Origin: a virus
IMG/VR virus record: IMGVR_UViG_3300027793_000007
Reading direction: 5' to 3' (one strand)
Length of the DNA stretch: 61,053 bases
Below, in pieces: positions 2,948-61,053 of the stretch. A program made the position numbers and the translations under genes. Under the pieces are notes generated by a model, which worked only from the letters and a program-made list of their open reading frames with translations, had not been told where the DNA came from and did not search any database. The first letter of the stretch is position 1; the number at the start of each line of letters is the position of its first letter.

Positions 2948-5038
2948 CTAATCCTTACTCCATATACGTCTGTCGCGATAAACAGCTAATTTACATGGCT
3001 TTGAAGAATAACCCATGTTAGTCAGAATTGCCTTGACTTCAGCCGTGAAACCTTTTGGTATGGCTTTTCCTTGCCATATCTGAGCATTAAGAGCAGGGAT
3101 GAACACAAAGTCATAGCCCGTAGTATGCATGAACGTCTCAACAGCATTTCTTACCACTTCAAAGTAATCAGACTGGCAAATGTACTGCTGATTATCCCTA
3201 GTGGTGGTAGCAATTAGTCTATCGAAAGAACCTAGAGATGGGTTGGTTAATGCTTCTTGATAAGCGCTTGCCCAAATAGCATCAACATCAATTCTTAGCT
3301 GAGGAATGTTAACTCTAGTGCCAGTTGGAATCTTGCAGACCATCCATCTACGCTGTGAATAGGTATCAGAAAGAAACTGATAGTCTGTGGTAGTACCACC
3401 TATAACAAATGGGGTAGGTTTTTGTTCATCTCTCGATACATACATTACATTGTAATTAACGCATGGTTTAGTAATGAACTCGTTGATTTTGTCCCTGTTT
3501 TCTGCCTTGAGAACTAGAACCATTTCATCCCAAAAACATAGCCAGCTCTTAGTAAGTGCAGACTCGACTCCACTGTGGAAGCTAGACATAGAGTATATCC
3601 AAGACTTGAAGAATGCACTAAATGTAGCAGTCTTGCCACAGCCTGAGTTGCCAATTAATACTAGGCAAAAGGGGAAGTCAGTAAACTCTTCTTCATTGAT
3701 TTGCCTAAGCACTGCTGCCTTCAGAAACAAAGAGAAATACTCGTCCTCTTGCTCAGTCCCACCCCAGTATTTACTAGCAATATTAGTGTGGGAAATCCCT
3801 TGTTTAACCTTGCAAGACTGCAGGTATTCAATAATAGGATTGTAACTATTCTCTAGGGCTACATGGTCAACAATTAAAGGTGCATCCCATCTAGGCATAG
3901 AAATATTAGTCTGAGTTCTAACCTTGGCAATGATTTGGTTAATAGTCTTTTTCTCACCTTTGAACTCATGCCTATTGAGAAGCTTGTTGTATCTGATAGA
4001 GCCTTTAGCCCATTCAGTTAAGGCGTTGACAGCATTGCTAAATGGGTTGTCAATAACTTCAGTAGGATCGTTGTCTAGATGATCCCATGTACCACTAGAG
4101 CTAGGTAGATACTTAGCATTAGTAGAGCGCCAGCCACAGTCATAAGCCCATCTAAAGATAGATTTGTAGGTATAGCCACCTTGATAGCCTTCACCTTGCC
4201 ATTGTGACCATCTATAGGCAAAGTTACATCTAATAGACTTAGGTGACTGCTCAGACCATCTAACCCAATCATCAAAGAGTGATTCAGATGTAGCTTTAAG
4301 AGCCATTCCCACCTTGTGCCACCCATCCTCATCGTCAAGGTACTGAGGTGAGTTAATAGCCATTAATGCTGACCTAACTTCATCTAACAACTCACTCTCA
4401 GACTTAGTTGTTTTGACCTTAGACGGCTTAGTTTTAGTTGTAGGAGTAATAGGTTGGTAGTGCCGTTCTAGCGGCTTAGCAATTTCGTCTAGTGTGTAGG
4501 TATAGCCAGTGTGTTTAGCAATGGTAGATACATAGCCCGTCTTAGGGTGGACACCACCAGCTAGCCTCATTAGCCGAGCAGGGTTAACTAGTTTTGTATC
4601 AGCTTTAAGTACATTAACTAGCATTGTCTGAACTAATACCCATTGTTCAGGGTCTACAGGTTTAGATAGGACATAGTAGGAATGAACAGATTTACCACCC
4701 GTGTCTACTTGGATGGTAGGTTCTGGCAGTCCATACTTTTGCCACATAGACATAGACTCTTCCTTAGAAATGTCATCATGCTCATAGAACAGGGCATAGC
4801 TTTGGGTAACATCTTTGTCCTTATAAGCGCGGTTAGGACAATAAAATATATTGAGTTGCTTAGCCTCTTGCTGACTAATCCCTAGGTAATCAACATCAGG
4901 ATACACAAAAGATAGCTTTCTAGATGTCTTGCCTTTGCCACCATCTATAGGTAGGCAATTAAGAAGCACCGTATCCCCTTCAACAAAACCCAACGCACTC
5001 AAGTGAGTTAACGCATCTTGTACAGTAGTTTTATCCAT
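2948..5038 (-). CDS. bifunctional AEP primase-polymerase / SF3 (D5/P4-type) helicase
   Basis: AEP motifs FYEHDD, GGKSVHSYYVL and ARLMRLAGGVHPKTG. PriCT-like DDEDGWHKVGMALK. Walker A GNSGCGKT and Walker B CFWDE. Confidence 0.9.
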   Translation of the reverse strand: MDKTTVQDALTHLSALGFVEGDTVLLNCLPIDGGKGKTSRKLSFVYPDVDYLGISQQEAKQLNIFYCPNRAYKDKDVTQSYALFYEHDDISKEESMSMWQKYGLPEPTIQVDTGGKSVHSYYVLSKPVDPEQWVLVQTMLVNVLKADTKLVNPARLMRLAGGVHPKTGYVSTIAKHTGYTYTLDEIAKPLERHYQPITPTTKTKPSKVKTTKSESELLDEVRSALMAINSPQYLDDEDGWHKVGMALKATSESLFDDWVRWSEQSPKSIRCNFAYRWSQWQGEGYQGGYTYKSIFRWAYDCGWRSTNAKYLPSSSGTWDHLDNDPTEVIDNPFSNAVNALTEWAKGSIRYNKLLNRHEFKGEKKTINQIIAKVRTQTNISMPRWDAPLIVDHVALENSYNPIIEYLQSCKVKQGISHTNIASKYWGGTEQEDEYFSLFLKAAVLRQINEEEFTDFPFCLVLIGNSGCGKTATFSAFFKSWIYSMSSFHSGVESALTKSWLCFWDEMVLVLKAENRDKINEFITKPCVNYNVMYVSRDEQKPTPFVIGGTTTDYQFLSDTYSQRRWMVCKIPTGTRVNIPQLRIDVDAIWASAYQEALTNPSLGSFDRLIATTTRDNQQYICQSDYFEVVRNAVETFMHTTGYDFVFIPALNAQIWQGKAIPKGFTAEVKAILTNMGYSSKPCKLAVYRDRRIWSKD

Positions 5039-12938: not shown

Positions 12939-12976
12939 GGATTCAAAGCCTCTAAAACCCTTTTAGGGATTGAAAC
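12939..12976 (+). CRISPR. solitary CRISPR-type repeat unit (38 nt)
   Basis: ggattcaaagcctctaaaacccttttagggattgaaac. Identical over 41 nt to 16190-16230. Ends in the ATTGAAAC 5'-handle sequence typical of Cas6-type crRNAs. No second repeat occurs downstream. Confidence 0.6.
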
Positions 12977-16059: not shown

Positions 16060-16186
16060 AGATGAGTGGCGGAATTGGTAAACGCATAGGCTGGAACTTA
16101 ATATGTGGAATTAACCCCGTCCTCTGCTATGGCTGTATTGCCAGCTATCAGAGTGTTCCTTACAGGTTCAAATCCTGTCTCATCTA
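16060..16186 (+). tRNA. non-canonical tRNA-like element (127 nt) with an oversized anticodon-side domain
   Basis: 7/7 acceptor pairing agatgag/ctcatct. Leu-type D arm tg-gcggaattggtaaacgc. Canonical T arm acagg-ttcaaat-cctgt. The middle is about 40 nt too long. It holds the helix atag(g)ctgg/ccagctat and one anticodon-like hairpin ttaat-AUGUGGA-attaa (16098-16114, would read GUG). Confidence 0.5.
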
Positions 16187-16189
16187 TAA

Positions 16190-16272
16190 GGATTCAAAGC
16201 CTCTAAAACCCTTTTAGGGATTGAAACTCATCTATAAGGTCTAGGTGGATAACCCCTATTAGGGATTGAAAC
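16190..16272 (+). CRISPR. mini CRISPR-like array: full 38-nt repeat, 23-nt spacer-like segment, degenerate 22-nt repeat 3' half
   Basis: Repeat 16190-16227 is identical to 12939-12976. aacccctattagggattgaaac (16251-16272) matches the repeat's 3' end at 20/22. The array begins 3 nt after the tRNA-like 3' end. Confidence 0.6.
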
Positions 16273-53458: not shown

Positions 53459-53671
53459 ATGAAAATCTCTGAACTCATTGCAGAACTAACTAAACATTTA
53501 GAACAACATGGCGATGTACCAGTAGCCCTTGCTGATTGGCAAGAACAATGGGCAAGTCCTAACCTAGATATTGTCAATAAGGACAGTATATATGTTGACC
53601 ATCGTTTTCAACGATGGGAGAACAGAGGTACTGACAAAGTAGAATCTGTTTTAATCATTGGCTGGGTCTAA
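53459..53671 (+). CDS. hypothetical small protein related to the MTVNEL family
   Basis: MKISELIAELTKHLEQHGDVPV. Confidence 0.5.
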   Translation: MKISELIAELTKHLEQHGDVPVALADWQEQWASPNLDIVNKDSIYVDHRFQRWENRGTDKVESVLIIGWV

Positions 53672-53847
53672 GGTAGTATTCTCTGATTAAGTTGAGCTAA
53701 CTTAATCCTAACCATTTGCTCATTGACTTCCCTCAAACCCATACTCGAAAGTAGAGGTACTGTAGTCCTATCTCCCCTTAGATAAGATTCCAATACCTCT
53801 ATCTTTCTCTTAGCCATTCTTCTTTGTTGTGCCGCCCGACCTGCCAT
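53668..53847 (-). CDS. hypothetical small basic protein (59 aa)
   Basis: Track ORF trimmed to MAGRAAQQRRMAKRK, so it no longer overlaps the upstream gene. Confidence 0.45.
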   Translation of the reverse strand: MAGRAAQQRRMAKRKIEVLESYLRGDRTTVPLLSSMGLREVNEQMVRIKLAQLNQRILP

Positions 53848-53848
53848 C

Positions 53849-54388
53849 TTATCTACTACCCATAAATCTAGACACCATCTCACTTATAGGCGATCTATTC
53901 ATCTCTATCATATTGCCTATCTGTTCAGGGCTATACTGCTTCATTCTACTATGCAATACAGGAGCAGATGCCATTGCCAATACATCAGTAGGTATTCCTA
54001 GCCGATGCCCTATACCATAGCTAGTGCCTTCAGCTTGTATTTCCTGAAGTGCTGTTGGCAAATCACTCCCACTATGATTGAAACCTATATGCGCTAGTTC
54101 ATGATTAAGTATCTTTTGCTGATAAGGTAAATCATCCTTCAGCCACACATTCTTGTCCCATGCTAACCCTCTAGTCGTAGGGCTACTCTCAACTATTCTC
54201 AACTGGCTAGGATATTGTATCAAGTCTTTAACTATATTCACCCCTAACTCATCAAGCATCCTTGAGTTAACATCACTATACCTATCAGCATACTTAGCCA
54301 TTCCTTGAGTCATAGCTTCTCTATAGTTGACTTTACCAACATCATCAAGAGTCCGTATTAACTGTATCTCTCGCGCTATCCTACTCAT
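53849..54388 (-). CDS. HExxH zinc metallopeptidase (ImmA/IrrE- or SprT-like)
   Basis: ILNHELAHIGFNH. Start moved to ATG 54388 (MSRIAREIQ); the track start is a GTG inside hairpin element H0. Confidence 0.55.
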   Translation of the reverse strand: MSRIAREIQLIRTLDDVGKVNYREAMTQGMAKYADRYSDVNSRMLDELGVNIVKDLIQYPSQLRIVESSPTTRGLAWDKNVWLKDDLPYQQKILNHELAHIGFNHSGSDLPTALQEIQAEGTSYGIGHRLGIPTDVLAMASAPVLHSRMKQYSPEQIGNMIEMNRSPISEMVSRFMGSR

Positions 54389-54389
54389 T

Positions 54390-54418
54390 ACAGGGGACAC
54401 CCCTGTACGACCCCGCAC
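54390..54418 (+). repeat. hairpin element H0 (diverged member of the H family)
   Basis: acagggg-aca-cccctgt-acgaccccgcac. Aligns with acgggg-aga-ccccgt-gacaccccc of H1-H3. Confidence 0.5.
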
Positions 54419-54450
54419 AGGTGATAACTTTACATCAAGAGTCTACCACA

Positions 54451-54470
54451 CAGCGCCTCGGAAGAGGTGA
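54451..54470 (+). repeat. R element copy 1 (cagcgcctcggaagaggtga)
   Basis: Identical 20-mer at 54701. Contains the cctc-ggaa-gagg hairpin. Confidence 0.7.
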
Positions 54471-54522
54471 ATGTTTTAGTATCAGCGCTATTATCCTAGC
54501 AACGGTCATTGTATCCTCACAC

Positions 54523-54542
54523 CAGTGCCTCGAAAGAGGTGA
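54523..54542 (+). repeat. R element copy 2 (cagtgcctcgaaagaggtga)
   Basis: 18/20 match to R1. A half copy (cagcgcccc) sits at 54574-54582. Confidence 0.6.
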
Positions 54543-54700
54543 GTATTTGCAGATACTACGTCTATACCAACAACAGCGCCCCTTAATACCTGAAATACTC
54601 TGGAATAATGGGGCGATATCACTATATTAGACCCTATCCCCCACACTTCAGCGCATCGTAGATGCAAGAGTTTTGAGATAGACTTATCTACTGCGCTCAA

Positions 54701-54720
54701 CAGCGCCTCGGAAGAGGTGA
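54701..54720 (+). repeat. R element copy 3 (cagcgcctcggaagaggtga)
   Basis: Identical to 54451-54470. Confidence 0.7.
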
Positions 54721-54767
54721 GATTCTTTGGATAGGCTCTATTTACTCTTTCTTCCATTCCATTTGAA

Positions 54768-54806
54768 CCACGACGGGGAGACCCCGTGACACCCCCTTAC
54801 TTGATT
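54768..54806 (+). repeat. hairpin element H1
   Basis: ccacgacggggagaccccgtgacacccccttacttgatt, nearly identical to H3. Confidence 0.7.
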
Positions 54807-54834
54807 TTATACTTTCGCTTAAACCAAATTACTT

Positions 54835-54913
54835 CTGTCTTATTCATTGTCTTCTCTAATCTCTGTTCTATTCATTATCTTCTCTAATTACTGTAGTTCT
54901 ATCCATTATAACT
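54835..54913 (+). repeat. tandem repeat of about 27 bp, 2.5 copies
   Basis: ctgtcttattcattgtcttctctaat / ctctgttctattcattatcttctctaat / tactgtagttctatccattataact. Confidence 0.65.
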
Positions 54914-55047
54914 TACCTACGGCTCTGATATAGCTTCCTTTTTGGCTGTACTGGCTTTATATTTTTACTAAATGGAAGTACTTTATACAGGTTTTTGTTT
55001 ATCTGTTATACTCTACCCCACAACAACCTAAACCGCAGAACAAAAAA

Positions 55048-55080
55048 GGTACGGGGAGACTCCGTGACACTCCCTAAGAC
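55048..55080 (+). repeat. hairpin element H2
   Basis: ggtacggggagactccgtgacactccctaagac. Confidence 0.6.
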
Positions 55081-55132
55081 CAGCGCGTCTTACGCAAGTG
55101 TAGTCTTTCGTTCCACGCGCTGATGCTCATCA

Positions 55133-55170
55133 CACCACGGGGAGACCCCGTGACACCCCCTTACTTGATT
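55133..55170 (+). repeat. hairpin element H3
   Basis: caccacggggagaccccgtgacacccccttacttgatt; 7-bp GC stem with a 3-nt AGA loop. Confidence 0.7.
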
Positions 55171-55354
55171 ATACGTTTCCGTATGATACTCATTTGTACT
55201 AGTTGAGGGTGCGGTTGTTACATTGGCACATACATCGGCACATACATCGCACTACTTTGTAGCACATACACACTGCACGCAGAGGCTCTAGCACACCAGT
55301 TAGCTCTCACCTATCTACACAGTTGCCGACACATAGTGACTTGCATTCCATGCT

Positions 55355-55514
55355 CTGAGTTACTAGCACAGCACAGGTATATCGCCCTCAACAGTTGTAT
55401 CGTGTGTGAATTCCTTACCTTTCAGGCGCTGAGATGCTAGCACAGCACGGGTATCTGCTCCTCAACAGATATGTCTTCTACGAATTTCCTTGCCTAAAGG
55501 CGCTGGGATACTAG
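55355..55514 (+). repeat. 74-bp tandem repeat, 2.2 copies (about 70 percent identity)
   Basis: Units start ctgagttactagcacagcacagg (55355), ctgagatgctagcacagcacggg (55429) and ctgggatactag (55503). Confidence 0.65.
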
Positions 55515-55624
55515 TTATAGCCTAGAGCAGGGGGCGTTGCGGGGGGCGGCTAGCCATCCCGCACAGTGACTTAACTTTTTTACCTTCGGTCTGTGGGAGG
55601 CATACTTTATTTGGGATTAATCCT

Positions 55625-55951
55625 ATGTCTACTTTATTCTCTCTTGTTGGTTTCTGCGTTCAGTTGGTTGTTATCTTCTCCTCTATTGCACTCATCATTG
55701 ATACGCATGAGTATCTCTGCTCTCAAGACACTGCCGATGAGTCTGACGCTACGCTACCTATGACCACAAGCCACTGTGCTAAGTCAATGACAACTCCCGC
55801 TATTGTGACTACCATCAGTGAGTTTGAGCTTTACCCCGATATTAACTCTATGACTGTTAAGCAACTCAAGTCCTATGCCAAGGCTTCTGGCTTTACAGGA
55901 TACAGCGCACTCCGCAAGGCTGAGTTAATCAGCTTACTCTCAGAATTCTAG
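55625..55951 (+). CDS. membrane-anchored protein with a Rho-N/SAP-like C-terminal domain
   Basis: N-terminal TM segment LVGFCVQLVVIFSSIALII. The C-terminus MTVKQLKSYAKASGFTGYSALRKAELISLL fits the Rho_N/SAP pattern. Confidence 0.55.
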   Translation: MSTLFSLVGFCVQLVVIFSSIALIIDTHEYLCSQDTADESDATLPMTTSHCAKSMTTPAIVTTISEFELYPDINSMTVKQLKSYAKASGFTGYSALRKAELISLLSEF

Positions 55952-56046
55952 CCTATCTCGACAGCCACTTGTGATAAGCATGAGTGGCTTAACTCTCTTA
56001 ACTTCGTTTTGTTAATCATTGTATTTTATTAATTTGGAGATTAACC

Positions 56047-57077: not shown

Positions 57078-57142
57078 TCCCGCAGTCCTAAGCATGACTC
57101 TAAACTGCTTCCCTCATAGACCCTGCGTTACCCGAAAGGTAT

Positions 57143-57164
57143 GACGCTACGCTATGAGGGTGAC
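57143..57164 (+). promoter_or_regulatory. phage promoter-like motif, copy 33, upstream of the RNA polymerase gene
   Basis: gacgctacgctatgagggtga, 40 nt upstream of ATG 57205. Confidence 0.55.
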
Positions 57165-57204
57165 TTCTGATGTTTAGTTCATATCTAGTAAGGAGATATT
57201 GGTG

Positions 57205-60054
57205 ATGAATGTAGCCAAGTACGAGTTTATTGACGGGCAGTTTAAGCGCACGATGGAAGTTCCATTGCGAATGACTCTCTTAGAGCAAGTGTGCGTCAAC
57301 TTGGGGGTTTCGCCAACCTCTATTGTCATTCTTGAGTTGGGCGGTATCGCGCCCAAAGAGCTAAGGAAGGACGGCGATAAAGGCAAGGAACTTCTTGCTC
57401 AACAGATGGAAGTCCTTGCTTCTGCAAGTCAATCTCTAGCTGACAATGGTATTACCTTGGATGGTGTGCATTACTCACTTCTCCAAGCAACTAGTGGTGC
57501 TAAGACCTCTGCTTCTATGTTGCTGTCGAGTGACATTCGTCTTATTGAATACTTTAGAGGTAATGACCAACACAAAGGTTTGATGTGTCATCCCAGCAAG
57601 TCATACGAGCAGCTAATGATGGGATACCAGCTTCCACTCACTCCCAACAAGGCTGTTGTTACAGCCAAGTTACGGGTTCTCATTGTGGATGATGAGTTTG
57701 ATAACTATCAGGTACACGCTGGTTCTATCAGCCAGTGTGTTGGCGCAAACCCTGATGGCAGCCCCAAGTGGGAGGTTATCTCGTCTTGGCAGGATGAGAC
57801 TATTCGCCATTATGATACCCGTCAGTCCGTTGCTGGTGTGGGCGACTGTCACATCAAAATCTCTCAAGGCTTGGCTAACTATCTCAGCACTAAAGTCACG
57901 GGCTTCAACAGCACGACTGGACAACCCATGACATTCCTTGACAGCGCTAATCAAGGCTGTCAATTCAGGCTAATGGTGGGTGAATGCCCTGCAATGGCTA
58001 AGGGAACATTCGTGGTAGAGCCTAGCCTTGCAGAGGATTACCACATGGTAATCCCTAAATCATGCTTTAAGTTGGGCTATCCTAACTTGTTAACTCTTGA
58101 TGGTGTATTGACTATCACGCTAGGAGCAACCATGCAGGCTGTGGATGGCAAGGCAGCATTTGGCTCTCAGTTTGCTCGCTCCATGAGTAAGTCAGTGCTG
58201 GAAGTTCGCAAACCTTACATTGCAGAACAGATGGCTCGCCTTAATACTGCTGGTTCTTCTATTCAAGAAGCGGCTAAGTTCTTCAATGCAGAAGCCAACT
58301 CTAAGGTTATCTGGTTTGAGGAGAACGAAGATGGTGAAGAAGTGGAGCAGTCCCGTGACGACTGGTTCTACAAGGCTATGCACTCCATAGCAACTAGTGA
58401 GCATCTAAGTTGGGCGCTCAAAGACCCAACCATCATTCAACGCATCCTCTCTAGCATTAGCAAGAGGAAGATGAAGTTAGCTCTAGGCATGGGCTTTGAG
58501 GGTAGAGTTCGTACTGCATTACCTGATGATACCCTTCCACTCCATGTAATCAGTGCATCTGATGCAAGAGTTCTTAAGTGGAAGGATGGGAAGTGGTTCA
58601 ACGGCAAGAAGGCACTACCACATGGTGCTGTTGGTATGGTTGAGTCTAATGGAACTCAACACATTGGCTTGTTAGTGGTTAGGGGCAAAGCGCCTATCAT
58701 GAACCATGCCGAGCAATGCTTGGGCGTTCTTGTCCATCGTCCTGATGGTATTGGATCGGGTTGCGAGTTTATGAGCCATCAATCAGCATCGGTCTGCACT
58801 ATGGACTTTGATGGTGATAGGAATAGTACTCTAGTCTGGAAGGATGAAGTTGGCTATCTCGAAGCTATCAATCACTTTGTCAAGATTCAGAGACATTGCC
58901 CAATTACTCCTGTTATCAAGGAGAAGTCCAAGGTTAATCGTGGATGGGGTGAGTTAACTCGCTTAGTCTATGAAAGCGCCTTCGAGATGGGTTGTAGTGG
59001 CATTACCTCTATGTATTGCCAAGCGACAGAAGCTAGTGGTGTTAAGGGATTCAACTCTTGGTTGGAGTCTATTGCGACATTGACTGGTGCTACTCAACTA
59101 TACCTTGACTGTCAGAAGTATGCACCTCAGAACCCTGATGAGTTGAAGTCTATCATTGATGGTGCTATGGAGTACTTTCAAGCATGGCAGACTGACCAAC
59201 GCTCTAGTGATTTAAGGTCTATGCCTTATATCCATCGTGGGCTTAACACATGGAAGATGGCTGGGTTTTGTGACAATGCTAAACCCAAGCATGATGTTGG
59301 TACTATTGCTGCTTGCATCAACTATGTCAATGGATTGCATGAAGTGCCAGCGTTGTTAGATGGTATGAAGCCTCTAACTCACCTTCGTGGTATCTGGGGT
59401 GATTACTCAGCCCATGATAAGCAAGTGGCTATCGACTTTAAGGCTTCACTTAGAGCTTTTGATGCACTATGCAAGGAAGGTGATGCTGATACTAAGAAGG
59501 TATCGGCTCTCATTGACGATGCTAGAGTGCGTTGTGAGTCATTCACCGATGCTCAGTTCAGTGCGTTCTGGGATTTGTCCTATAACAAAGACTGTCTCAT
59601 TGAGGTTGGGCAAGACAAGAAAGAGTACATTCCCACAGCTAACAAGCCTTGGATGCTGTTCACACAGCGCATTCTTGAGAACACTCCTGAGTTGTTGCTT
59701 AAGAAAGAGACTGTGTTATTTAAGCATGGTGGTAAATCCCCTCACGCTATTGATGCAGTAACTCGTACTCAACTGTTGGAGAAACTCACTAAGGAGTCTT
59801 TTAAGACAGTGTGTGAGGTATCTCCTGAGTTCGTAGTCTTCCATGAGAAGAACAAGACTCTTGAGATGTTTCCAGTCATCAGTGTCAAGCGTGGCATTGT
59901 GATTGGTTACGTTGGTACTCATGTAGTGCCAGATACCTATGAGGTCGAACTATCTGCTATCCGTAAGCAGAAGATTGACAAGCCAACTGGACTTACCTAT
60001 ATGGAAGTCTATGAGTCTGGCTTTATGATGCGTATCATCGACATTGACTTTTAA
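57205..60054 (+). CDS. single-subunit two-double-psi-beta-barrel RNA polymerase (YonO / RdRP-like)
   Basis: VVRGKAPIMNHAEQCLGVLV...MSHQSASVCTMDFDGDRNSTLVW parallels beta-prime LLNRAPTLHRLGIQAF...NADFDGDQMAVHV. QFRLMVGECPAMAKGTFVVEP parallels the Lys-bearing barrel. GVGDCHIKISQGLANYL resembles the RdRP DGxGxIS..LA motif. ATG lies 8 nt after AAGGAGA. Confidence 0.8.
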   Translation: MNVAKYEFIDGQFKRTMEVPLRMTLLEQVCVNLGVSPTSIVILELGGIAPKELRKDGDKGKELLAQQMEVLASASQSLADNGITLDGVHYSLLQATSGAKTSASMLLSSDIRLIEYFRGNDQHKGLMCHPSKSYEQLMMGYQLPLTPNKAVVTAKLRVLIVDDEFDNYQVHAGSISQCVGANPDGSPKWEVISSWQDETIRHYDTRQSVAGVGDCHIKISQGLANYLSTKVTGFNSTTGQPMTFLDSANQGCQFRLMVGECPAMAKGTFVVEPSLAEDYHMVIPKSCFKLGYPNLLTLDGVLTITLGATMQAVDGKAAFGSQFARSMSKSVLEVRKPYIAEQMARLNTAGSSIQEAAKFFNAEANSKVIWFEENEDGEEVEQSRDDWFYKAMHSIATSEHLSWALKDPTIIQRILSSISKRKMKLALGMGFEGRVRTALPDDTLPLHVISASDARVLKWKDGKWFNGKKALPHGAVGMVESNGTQHIGLLVVRGKAPIMNHAEQCLGVLVHRPDGIGSGCEFMSHQSASVCTMDFDGDRNSTLVWKDEVGYLEAINHFVKIQRHCPITPVIKEKSKVNRGWGELTRLVYESAFEMGCSGITSMYCQATEASGVKGFNSWLESIATLTGATQLYLDCQKYAPQNPDELKSIIDGAMEYFQAWQTDQRSSDLRSMPYIHRGLNTWKMAGFCDNAKPKHDVGTIAACINYVNGLHEVPALLDGMKPLTHLRGIWGDYSAHDKQVAIDFKASLRAFDALCKEGDADTKKVSALIDDARVRCESFTDAQFSAFWDLSYNKDCLIEVGQDKKEYIPTANKPWMLFTQRILENTPELLLKKETVLFKHGGKSPHAIDAVTRTQLLEKLTKESFKTVCEVSPEFVVFHEKNKTLEMFPVISVKRGIVIGYVGTHVVPDTYEVELSAIRKQKIDKPTGLTYMEVYESGFMMRIIDIDF

Positions 60055-60864: not shown

Positions 60865-61053
60865 ATGCTAACTCTTAGATATCCCTGCGACTATCGTTTT
60901 TCAAGCAATGGTGGGGACTACGCCCACTACTGCAAACAGGTAAATGAAGATTTCATCATCTTCTGGTCATCTGGCGAGTTGGCGGAAGAAAACACGATGA
61001 TTGGATACCACCGAGGTAAGCCAATAATCGTCACACGGCACGACTGCTACGGC
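60865..61053 (+). CDS. 5' part of the junction-spanning hypothetical gene (continues at 128..343)
   Basis: ATG 4 nt after GGAGA. MLTLRYPCDYRFSSNGGDYAHYCKQVNEDF... reads in frame into the track ORF 53..343. Confidence 0.6.
   Translation, partial: MLTLRYPCDYRFSSNGGDYAHYCKQVNEDFIIFWSSGELAEENTMIGYHRGKPIIVTRHDCYG
60927..61053. repeat. terminal overlap, copy B (identical to 1-127)
   Basis: See copy A. Confidence 0.9.

Follow-up and report, generated by a model that had tools for sequence, protein, structure and literature searches.

The window, that is, the whole stretch of 61,053 nucleotides that was analysed, is a circular assembly of a genome of about 60.9 kb, whose ends overlap by 127 nt, a length equal to an assembler k-mer, at a site outside the 54.4–55.6 kb gap described here. 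The phage is uncultured, and its host is probably a freshwater cyanobacterium. About 40 homologues of its RNA polymerase (RNAP) were found, all of them metagenomic, with remote copies in Pseudanabaena MAGs. A search of 50,697 phage records with the gap (blastn) and the RNAP (tblastn) returned no match; the only match among phage records comes from the portal-like protein, to Synechococcus phage S-EIVl (31%). Comparisons were made with about 15 metagenomic relatives (designated by L numbers), and the plan of the gap is kept in L001, L003, L004, L005, L007, L018, L020, L021, L025 and L026. The distant relative among these is L020, with an RNAP 51% identical to that of the window. At the other extreme, L051 (JGI 3300064077) matches the window without a difference over 54380–55640, and the gap or an identical one is also present in ERZ25039512, SRR24099942 and SRR32678485.

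The gap lies between two divergent operons (Table 1). The preliminary description had taken the gene starting at 54388 for the first late gene. It belongs instead to a small leftward operon encoding proteins of 179 and 59 residues, and two + strand genes stand between this operon and the structural block. The 179-residue gene is swapped or missing in some relatives, L003 being one that lacks it. The gene for the 59-residue protein is the last of the operon and is present in L001, L003, L004, L005 and L018; its product has no match in Pfam or PHROG.

Table 1. Features of the gap and of the genes on either side, with positions in the window
Feature	Position	Strand	Remarks
59-aa protein	53668..53847	-	conserved N-terminal Arg-rich motif GRAAQQRRMAKRK
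179-aa gene	53849..54388	-	HELAH motif; ATG directly abuts H0
H0, left boundary	54390..54422	+	hairpin ACAGGGG-ACA-CCCCTGT, then ACGACCCCGCACAGGT
Left R array	54451..54721	+	CAG-CGCNN-loop-NNG[T/C]G-A
H1	54773..54800	+	hairpin ACGGGG-AGA-CCCCGT plus GACACCCCC; dispensable H0 paralog
AT-rich core	54797..55047		lowest GC of all 200-250-bp windows of the genome
Putative sigma-70-like promoter, extended -10	54984..55012	+	TATACA-17-TGtTATACT, rightward
H2	55051..55078	+	variant H copy (CTCC/CTCCC); R element 7 nt downstream
Head-to-head R pair	55081..55122		CAGCGCGT...ACGCGCTG
H3	55137..55164	+	29-nt insertion relative to L003; almost the same as H1
Conserved block ACTTGATTATACGTTTCCGTATGATA	55163..55188	+	small hairpin ATACG-TTTC-CGTAT; TATRAT box
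Degenerate class-M-like core GTTGTTACATTGG	55214..55249	+	CA-rich 12-mers downstream, in varying copy number
Tandem repeat, 74 bp x 2.2	55355..55514	-	one reverse R element per unit (55431, 55505)
H0', inverted partner of H0	55520..55563	-	hairpin GCGGG...CCCGC plus AACGCCCCC
Class E cassette 1, 26 nt	55565..55590	+	AGTGACTTAACTTTTTTACCTTCGGT; 60 nt upstream of first RNAP-operon gene
First early gene, 108 aa	55625..55951	+	hydrophobic N terminus; C-terminal Rho_N/SAP-like domain
Class M motif upstream of RNAP gene	57140..57160		
RNAP, 951 aa, predicted two-barrel single-chain enzyme	57199..60054	+	MDFDGD; fold match

The RNAP matches nothing in Pfam, including its RNA_pol families, in PHROGs or among PDB sequences. 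A fold search retrieved RDR2 and QDE-1 at E values of 2e-9 to 1e-5 and gp64 of phage P32 at 4e-3, from a structural model of mediocre quality (pLDDT 68.8) whose active-site loops are poorly predicted. On this match and the DFDGD motif, we assign it to the two-barrel enzymes of the kind represented by QDE-1/RDR2 and the Thermus-phage gp64, rather than to the polymerases of T7 or N4 type. No other ORF of the genome carries an RNAP-type DxDGD motif, the largest ORFs being of 951, 760, 701 and 696 residues.

The absence of genes from the 1.2 kb between 54390 and 55624 is real. The longest ORFs within it, of 83 residues on the - strand and 69 on the + strand, overlap each other, and we rejected them as protein-coding: relatives match them only as broken, frame-shifted pieces, with the flanking genes intact. 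Each repeat family listed in the preliminary description was found again where it had been placed. The proposal that divergent operons are separated by a control region devoid of genes is supported, and the elements of this region are conserved in relatives. It had overlooked H0', the reverse copies of the R elements, the class E cassette at 55565 and the hairpin nature of R. With these included, the layout is roughly mirror-symmetric, with H0 at the left end, H0' at the right end, R elements facing inward and AT-rich DNA in the centre. Inversion of the segment that H0 and H0' enclose was ruled out, the orientation being identical in all relatives. Rfam covariance models gave nothing at gathering score (best E values 3–5).

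H0 and H0', which bracket the gap, are two copies, in opposite orientation, of one unit made up of a GC hairpin and an ACGMCCCC element. H0 is an invariant block in every relative that carries it. H0', which stands back to back with class E cassette 1, is clearest in L005, is found also in L003, L004, L018 and L021, and is missing from L001 and L007. The four hairpins H0–H3 are present as first described, all on the + strand, with H1 and H3 95% identical over 41 nt. The motif of H1–H3, ACGGGGAGACCCCGTGACACCCCC, occurs at 54773, 55051 (two mismatches) and 55137, on the + strand only and nowhere else in the 61 kb; shuffled sequences are expected to hold none, and a scan of IMG/VR for the H core pattern gave 0 matches.

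H1–H3 behave differently from H0 among relatives. They are missing from L003, L001, L005 and L007, L004 and L052 each have a single one, and in L018 a copy sits at another location; their number and position vary even between near-identical strains. H1 lies within a 56-nt insertion bordered by AACCA. All three coincide with mosaic or recombination breakpoints, identity to the window breaking at 55047, by H2, in strain L052 and at 55135, by H3, in strain L054. H1–H3 are supernumerary copies of H0, dispensable and liable to come and go. The conserved H0-type element may have a promoter role.

Of the R elements, two identical copies of CAGCGCCTCGGAAGAGGTGA at 54451 and 54701, a third with two mismatches at 54523 and a half copy at 54574 had been noted before and are all present, with a chance expectation of none. 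The complete left array comprises copies at 54451–54470, 54483–54501 (weak), 54523–54542, 54574–54616 (carrying a 27-nt loop), 54649–54666 and 54701–54720. Reversed copies start on the - strand at 55122, 55431 and 55505. The 8-bp inverted repeat at 55081–55122 is likewise confirmed and proves to be two R elements head to head, an arrangement kept in L018 and in part in L003 and L001. R-type elements number only 10 genome-wide, six of them in the gap, and their orientation always matches that of the nearest H0-type element.

Nothing but CAGCGC and the stem base stays constant across the copies. The stems differ within the window (CCTC/GAGG, GCATC/GATGC, GCCCC/GGGGC, GCGT/ACGC, GCCT/AGGT) and make up 19 types overall. 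At the second stem position 17 elements have G·T and 10 have G-C, and an A directly follows the stem in 23 of 27. Because any R alignment that could be built was pre-selected for pairing, we judged the structure by an unbiased comparison of CAGYGC sites inside and outside control regions: an adjacent hairpin accompanies 43 of the 59 sites inside, against 18 of the 205 outside (Fisher p = 6e-22). The left array folds as RNA with a z-score of -4.2 in the + sense and -1.5 in the - sense. Stem covariation within a single genome means that what is conserved is not the duplex sequence. This covariation, together with a G·T wobble confined to one strand, implies that R acts single-stranded and not as a duplex operator. 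The earlier proposal of duplex operators also fits poorly with the occurrence of R in both orientations. These data establish the anatomy of the gap, its conservation and the selection, on one strand, of the R hairpins as structures. Irregular spacing and variable stems rule out a CRISPR-like or ToxI-like array, and confinement to one region rules out REP/BIME-like elements. Nor do the R copies have the form of intrinsic terminators: T-runs, if any, begin 3–6 nt past the stem, and many copies have none.

Between the opposed R elements, the AT-rich core holds a tandem repeat and a conserved block (54947–55047). The repeat had been described as 27 bp x 2.5; it exists, with a size according to TRF of 28 bp x 2.6 (54834–54909). 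The putative promoter within the core matches the consensus at 9 of 12 positions plus TG, in a scan whose overall yield is no better than chance (8 found, 7.0 expected). Its -10 ATAC is invariant in nine genomes, L020 included, the TG is kept in most, and the -35 is not conserved.

To the right of the core, the class-M-like element at 55214 reads GTCGCTACGCTGG in L004, L021 and L052. Both tandem repeats reported for this side are confirmed by TRF, the 12-mer as 12 bp x 2.6 at 55219–55249. Tandem repeats differ in copy number between relatives, which have two to four reverse R copies of the 74-bp-unit type. Class E occurs three times, with further copies at 55983 and 56789, once before each gene of the RNAP operon, and it precedes each early gene in all relatives. 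The copies at 55983 and 56789 form the 3' arm of an 11–17-bp hairpin followed by a T-rich run (TTTYNTA). Folded sequence by sequence, their 5' arms being out of register for RNAalifold, these intergenic stems reach -12 to -28 kcal/mol, well under shuffles, and have the form of intrinsic terminators. Class E cassette 1 lacks the 5' arm. Class E is unlike a sigma-70 promoter, and no second RNAP that could read it was found. The class M motif, GACGCTACGCTATGGGG, has about 35 copies genome-wide, almost all on the + strand; in L020 both class E and class M are altered. Matches to the TTGATTATACG block and to class E in scans of IMG/VR were mostly due to chance.

The gap is a control hub, conserved yet evolving fast. 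As to what it controls, our leading, tentative reading, to which we give somewhat less than an even chance, is that it combines early promoters with a replication origin, the origin part being read from the architecture alone. Early rightward transcription would begin at the promoter in the core and at the class E cassettes and would switch on the phage polymerase, which would then presumably use the roughly 35 class M motifs. As an origin, the gap would work through the opposed R arrays, which would fold when single-stranded, either in RNA made inwards from both ends or in unwound DNA, and which flank an easily melted core. The Pri-Rep iteron origins of P4 alpha and SaPI likewise have two repeat sets around an AT-rich region. 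The corresponding architecture is found here, with R(+) at 54451–54720 and R(-) at 55122, 55431 and 55505 on either side of 54797–55047, where the genome is richest in AT, and the gene at 2948..5038 encodes a primase-helicase of the type serving those origins, with PriCT_2 and VapE-like domains. The repeats differ in kind: classical iterons are duplex sequence repeats, whereas those of the gap are hairpins with covarying stems rather than fixed duplex words, which counts against an origin. So does the GC skew, which lacks a clean origin signal; its cumulative curve is not closed and has only a shallow local minimum at 56–58 kb. The absence of H0 from the distant L020 also weighs against combined promoters and origin. 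A role of the repeats in replication origin, packaging or genome ends is plausible.

The one-strand selection of R could also reflect antitermination of the N/nut kind. R hairpins would be RNA sites in long leaders bound by the Arg-rich 59-residue protein; the leaders would start at both ends, with the H0-type elements as promoters, and the polymerase would read through the hairpin and U-rich class E cassettes and, leftwards, into the late genes. The gene for this protein, with its conserved GRAAQQRRMAKRK, always lies beside the gap in the leftward operon, and lambda places its N gene in a comparable adjacent leftward position. R consists of a conserved linear part and a small hairpin whose loop is often GNNA and in some copies GNRA-like, as in nut with its boxA and boxB; both the wobble pair, G·U, and the z-score of folding favour RNA of that sense; R orientation tracks the nearest H0-type element; and the intergenic class E copies resemble terminators in their 11–17-bp stems and T-rich run. 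The loops, however, vary freely (GGAA, GACA, GTA, TTT, CTT), unlike boxB, whose loop is the recognised part. There are six to 10 inward-facing R copies rather than one per operon, and L020 has R elements with no homologue nearby of the Arg-rich stretch, which we take to resemble an ARM; Pfam detects no homology to the lambda system. Face-to-face promoters and overlapping leaders of about 1.1 kb would be required, and no promoter was identified for inward transcripts, which an RNA version of the origin would also use, or for the leftward operon. We regard antitermination of this kind as unlikely.

A related proposal, which we hold to be rather improbable, is that R and the same-orientation H0-type hairpins preceding it form a new single-strand-recognised signal of a phage with a two-barrel RNAP. 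The H0-type elements would be promoters read by this enzyme in extruded or single-stranded form, or else R would provide RNA sites for the 59-residue protein in a new form of antitermination or priming.

The repeats might instead mark the termini of linear virion DNA, for example as a direct terminal repeat of about 200 bp at around 55008–55215, with the hairpin and tandem-repeat arrays serving concatemer processing and packaging and the RNAP operon entering the cell first. The terminal repeat of T7 is flanked by repeat arrays that act in these two processes. Two IMG/VR contigs of 41.8 and 13.6 kb, independent of each other, stop no more than about 20 nt apart at the equivalent of 55200–55218, 10–30 nt past the conserved block at 55163–55188, and a 26-kb contig begins at the equivalent of about 55008. 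A collapsed terminal repeat would fit the circular assembly, and early genes including that for the RNAP lie beside one end in T7 and P23-45 as they would here. Against this, contigs also stop at H0, at H1 (three of them), and at about 55280 and about 55714, that is, at repeats or at the start of hypervariable DNA, and at least four relatives were assembled straight across the gap. In the three Logan contigs the break falls on the 35 nt common to H1 and H3, an effect we attribute to the assembler, whose k we take to be 31. Termini within the gap seem to us an outside prospect, on a par with the new signal.

Insulation of the core on both sides, with the R hairpins terminating transcription by host or phage polymerase, is very doubtful. 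The hairpins do face inward on both sides and are strand-specific in the RNA sense, two were flagged as terminator-like, and some have TTTT within 4–6 nt. Yet the stems are of just 4–6 bp and are followed by A in 23 of 27 cases, an adjacent U-tract is mostly missing, R-type elements are not found at other operon ends in the genome, and the need for six terminators against strong inward transcription is hard to see.

The original suggestion, that H0–H3 are N4-like promoters for a virion RNAP and R the duplex operators of a late operon, is now extremely improbable: the hairpins share with N4 early promoters a 6–7-bp GC stem, a 3-nt loop, a conserved 3' tail and several copies in one orientation, and an H0-type element abuts the - strand ATG, where + promoters sit at other divergent junctions, but the RNAP is not T7/N4-like, no virion-type RNAP candidate was found, several relatives lack H1–H3 so that only H0 is conserved, and the R stems covary within one genome. 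Transcription from N4 hairpin promoters begins about 11 nt downstream of the loop centre. For extrusion, these promoters depend on a loop of 3 nt that bears a 5'G and a 3'A and on a G:C loop-closing pair (PMC4496689). On the + strand the H loops read G[AGA]C in H1–H3 and G[ACA]C in H0, and the corresponding - strand readings are G[TCT]C and G[TGT]C, so neither loop nor closing pair is of N4 type.

Other phages offer closer parallels. A transcription scheme with two two-barrel RNAPs has been described for Thermus phage P23-45 (PMC10770324). The present phage resembles it in having a two-barrel single-chain RNAP, by fold similar to the gp64 homologues, two phage-specific motif classes, one AT-rich and confined to the genes around that of the RNAP, the other GC-rich and located elsewhere, and a conserved motif of about 26 nt between the first genes. 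It differs in that a second, virion RNAP was not found, HMM similarity is not detectable, the structural genes lie on the opposite strand, and the motif classes are known from sequence alone. At the left end of T7, a non-coding stretch with short repeat arrays precedes an early operon ending in the RNAP gene. The same arrangement is seen here, together with structured elements between early genes and a genome-wide promoter-like motif of about 20 nt ending in GGGG or GGGA; here, however, the polymerase fold is different, the gap lies between divergent operons and terminal repeats are only putative. The PeSL of T4-type phages are promoter-early stem-loop cassettes. Class E similarly places a stem-loop and a promoter-like motif before each early gene, and the H copies lie at mosaic breakpoints; the class E motif does not resemble sigma-70 promoters, and only the breakpoints suggest a part in recombination.

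To our knowledge, few two-barrel single-chain RNAPs of phages have been described (YonO, crAss-like gp66, P23-45 gp64 and gp96), and little is known of how they are regulated or of the promoters they use. The lineage studied here offers a compact system, in which candidate promoter classes are legible from the sequence and control elements covary clearly; its class M and class E motifs are ready templates for recombinant RNAP. If the gap is an ordinary hub of origin and promoters, its description would be useful for annotation of this phage group and unsurprising. If R and H0 are signals recognised in single-stranded form, hairpin-based control would reach past N4 and into a polymerase family that is unrelated.

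The largest non-coding gap in the window, 54389-55624, has a definite plan, and this plan is conserved. When relatives are aligned over the region, its overall plan, the GC hairpin H0 and the layout of a second hairpin family, R, are retained, but the H0-like elements H1-H3 are missing from several of them. All of the repeat families listed in a preliminary description are present, and the inverted repeat at 55081-55122 is real. The region also lacks a credible ORF, as stated there: its two longest ORFs overlap each other on opposite strands, and relatives match them in broken pieces only, with the flanking genes intact. The H hairpin ACGGGGAGACCCCGTGACACCCCC has three occurrences in the window, all on the + strand, at 54773, 55051 (two mismatches) and 55137; 100 shuffles gave no match. 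The R element CAGCGCCTCGGAAGAGGTGA occurs as identical copies at 54451 and 54701 and with two mismatches at 54523, none being expected.

Coordinates of the repeat elements and promoter-like motifs
Feature	Position	Strand	Remark
H0	54390-54422		
Left R copies	54451-54720 and 55081	+	
Tandem repeat, 28 bp x 2.6	54834-54909		TRF
Right R copies	55122, 55431, 55505	-	55431 and 55505 inside 74-bp repeat units
Tandem repeat, 12 bp x 2.6	55219-55249		TRF
Tandem repeat, 74 bp x 2.2	55355-55514		TRF
H0', inverted partner of H0	55520-55563		hairpin and AACGCCCCC on - strand
Class E	55565, 55983, 56789		only copies in window
Class M, examples	7604, 8565, 11401, 20827, 29709, 31593, 40773, 43391, 52601, 57146, 60407, 60455		

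The comparison set comprised control regions from ∼15 related contigs. Among those recovered, H0 is invariant (TACAGGGGACACCCCTGYACGACCCCGYACAGGT) wherever present and always directly adjoins the first leftward gene, whatever the identity of that gene. Its inverted partner H0' stands back to back with class E, a 26-nt cassette; the H0/H0' homology is plain in L005, and the window and the relatives L003, L004, L005 and L018 each carry one copy of the H0-type pattern on either strand. H1-H3 are built like H0, combining a G-run hairpin with GT(G/A)AC(A/G)CCCC on its 3' side, and are confined to the window and its closest strains, L018 (three copies, one elsewhere) and L004 (one copy). Relative to L003 they are insertions of 26-56 nt, and they are evidently dispensable. 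Because strains that match the window perfectly up to 55047, 55122 or 55135 lose identity right at the start of H2, the R pair or H3, the right half of the gap is evidently a mosaic, with variable copy numbers and a kept motif vocabulary of a class-M-like core, CA-rich 12-mers, two to four - strand R copies, H0' and class E.

The R elements share the consensus 5'-CAG-CGCNN(N)-loop-(N)NNG[T/C]G-A. An adjacent hairpin is present at 43 of the 59 CAGYGC sites in control regions versus 18/205 elsewhere (p = 6e-22). The 27 distinct elements comprise 19 stem types, including CCTC/GAGG, CATC/GATG, CCC/GGG, CCT/AGG, CGT/ACG and CGC/GCG; the second stem pair is G·T in 17 of them and G-C in the other 10, and an A directly follows the stem in 23. 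Since the opposite strand has an A·C mismatch wherever this one has G·T, the R elements would work single-stranded, in the CAGCGC sense. The folding of the left array relative to shuffles is consistent with this (RNA z = -4.2 for the + strand and -1.5 for the - strand), and the pattern as a whole indicates selection for R hairpin structure on one strand. Their convergent layout is common to all relatives, each R element taking the orientation of the nearest H0-type element. No Rfam family matches the region.

The interval between the R arrays, 54797-55047, exceeds every other 200-250-bp stretch of the genome in AT content. Within this core lie the 28-bp repeat and a conserved block of 100 bp carrying TATACA-17-TGtTATACT, a promoter-like site whose -10 ATAC is invariant even in the distant relative L020. 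Class E (AGTGRCTTAACTTTYNTANCTWCGNT) lies 52-64 nt upstream of each of the first three RNAP-operon genes. Relatives have two to four copies per genome, likewise placed ahead of the genes that precede the RNAP gene. Intergenic copies look like terminator-plus-promoter cassettes because each supplies the 3' arm of a hairpin (11-17 bp) that runs into a T-rich stretch; the first copy, within the gap, has no 5' arm. Class M (RACGCTACGCTAKGGGG), in ∼35 copies genome-wide, is nearly always on the + strand, 25-35 nt ahead of + strand start codons, with one copy immediately upstream of the RNAP gene. It is kept in relatives and is a T7-style promoter-like motif, presumably for the phage's two-barrel RNAP. 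The gap has only a degenerate version (55214-55226), whose counterpart is intact in L004, L021 and L052. A class M core (GACGCTACGCTAC) is found within the first early gene's coding sequence at 55748-55755; its position is conserved in six relatives, and it may serve as an internal promoter. At nine divergent junctions the class M reverse complement lies 0-10 nt from a - strand ATG; no promoter class could be assigned to the - strand structural genes (∼25 kb). In L020 (RNAP 51% identical) variants replace both class M and class E, which would make sense if one or both are read by the phage enzyme. P23-45 offers a parallel: its two two-barrel RNAPs use an AT-rich and a GC-rich motif, and terminators close to its RNAP gene are marked by a motif of 26 nt (PMC10770324).

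The 951-aa polymerase (57199-60054) has no sequence match in Pfam, PHROG or PDB and none among 50,697 phage records; ∼40 metagenomic homologues were found. It contains an MDFDGD motif, of a type absent from every other ORF of the window. Its AlphaFold model, of moderate confidence (pLDDT 68.8) and with poorly predicted active-site loops, matches RDR2/QDE-1 (E 2e-9 to 1e-5) and also Thermus phage P32 gp64 (E 4e-3). By its DFDGD motif and predicted fold, the protein is a two-barrel single-chain RNAP, not one of T7/N4 type. The first early gene (55625-55951) encodes a protein of 108 aa whose N terminus is hydrophobic and whose C-terminal part carries a Rho_N/SAP-like motif for nucleic-acid binding (Pfam 27.1 bits, cutoff 24.9); it might bind DNA or RNA while anchored in the membrane.

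Bases 1-127 and 60927-61053 of the window overlap exactly over 127 nt, so the assembly is circular and 60,926 bp long. It encodes a PriCT_2/VapE-like primase-helicase and, on the - strand, the large terminase, a portal-like protein and the major head protein. A 179-aa - strand gene adjoining the gap and the 59-aa gene form a small leftward operon, with two + strand genes between it and the structural block. Only the portal-like protein matches anything in the phage collection (Synechococcus phage S-EIVl, 31% identity), and distant polymerase homologues occur in Pseudanabaena MAG contigs; the phage is therefore likely a freshwater cyanophage. One homologue (40% identical; 4914-8842 of L017, a 294-kb contig of the Pseudanabaena sp. 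Salubria-1 MAG) is interrupted by a 380-aa IS-like ORF present twice in the locus, which is a decayed, prophage-like copy within a cyanobacterial genome and hints at host range. Elsewhere in the window, CRISPR-repeat-like sequences lie at 12939-12976, 16191-16227 and 16251-16272; GATTCAAAGCCTCTAAAACCCTTTTAGGGATTGAAAC occurs twice among them (45-mers 98% identical), with AACCCCTATTAGGGATTGAAAC as a third, partial copy. Their ...AGGGATTGAAAC end is typical of cyanobacterial type I/III repeats; isolated repeat units, a mini-array and RNA anti-CRISPRs are candidate explanations. An Rfam tRNA match at 16060-16186 (+; 40.4 bits, full model) ends exactly at the start of a CRISPR-like repeat; as it spans 127 nt, it would include a ∼55-nt insertion or long extra arm, and ARAGORN reports no tRNA there. 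Two pairs of diverged direct repeats (18179-18258/18482-18561 and 32373-32483/32636-32746; 80 nt and 111 nt, 74% identical) are probably duplicated small genes.

Judged from sequence, conservation and analogy, the region may tentatively be read as a combined early promoter and replication origin. Rightward early transcription would start at the core promoter and class E and switch on the phage RNAP, which, once made, would use class M; the symmetric hairpin arrays around the easily melted core would constitute the origin. The origin reading follows from a likeness to iteron origins, which are served by P4-alpha/SaPI-type primase-helicases and which the region resembles in architecture, or to T4/T7 origins, in which transcription into an unwinding element primes replication. 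The region was also compared with lambda N, T7 ends and PeSL.

An N/nut-like antitermination system is unlikely here: the conserved 59-aa protein beside the region begins with GRAAQQRRMAKRK, and intergenic class E hairpins would be terminators to overcome, but the R loops lack conservation and none of the promoters that such a system needs was found. It is rather improbable that the region represents genome ends or a packaging region. Two IMG/VR contigs end at most ∼20 nt apart at the equivalent of 55200-55218 and one begins at that of ∼55008, positions compatible with a terminal repeat of ∼200 bp. Against this, breaks in other contigs fall at H0 and elsewhere, and three contigs break at H1, where 35 nt are common to H1 and H3. 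We consider it very unlikely that R hairpins are insulating terminators, as they failed the test for intrinsic terminators, with A rather than a U-tract after the stem. The N4-like promoter and operator reading first proposed is scarcely tenable, since the polymerase is of another, two-barrel type, the H loop and closing-pair chemistry is unlike that of N4 promoters, the copies H1-H3 of the window are not conserved in relatives, and R sites, the supposed operators, are not identical within one genome.

Returning to the promoter and origin reading, a repeat-packed control or origin region is an already known kind of feature in phages, and it is doubtful that the hairpins here represent a new signal recognised in single-stranded form, whether for transcription, antitermination or priming. 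The novelty lies in the R family, whose stem base is conserved and contains a G·U pair, in the bracketing of the region by H0 and its inverted partner H0', and in the setting, a two-barrel-RNAP lineage with sequence-readable promoter classes.
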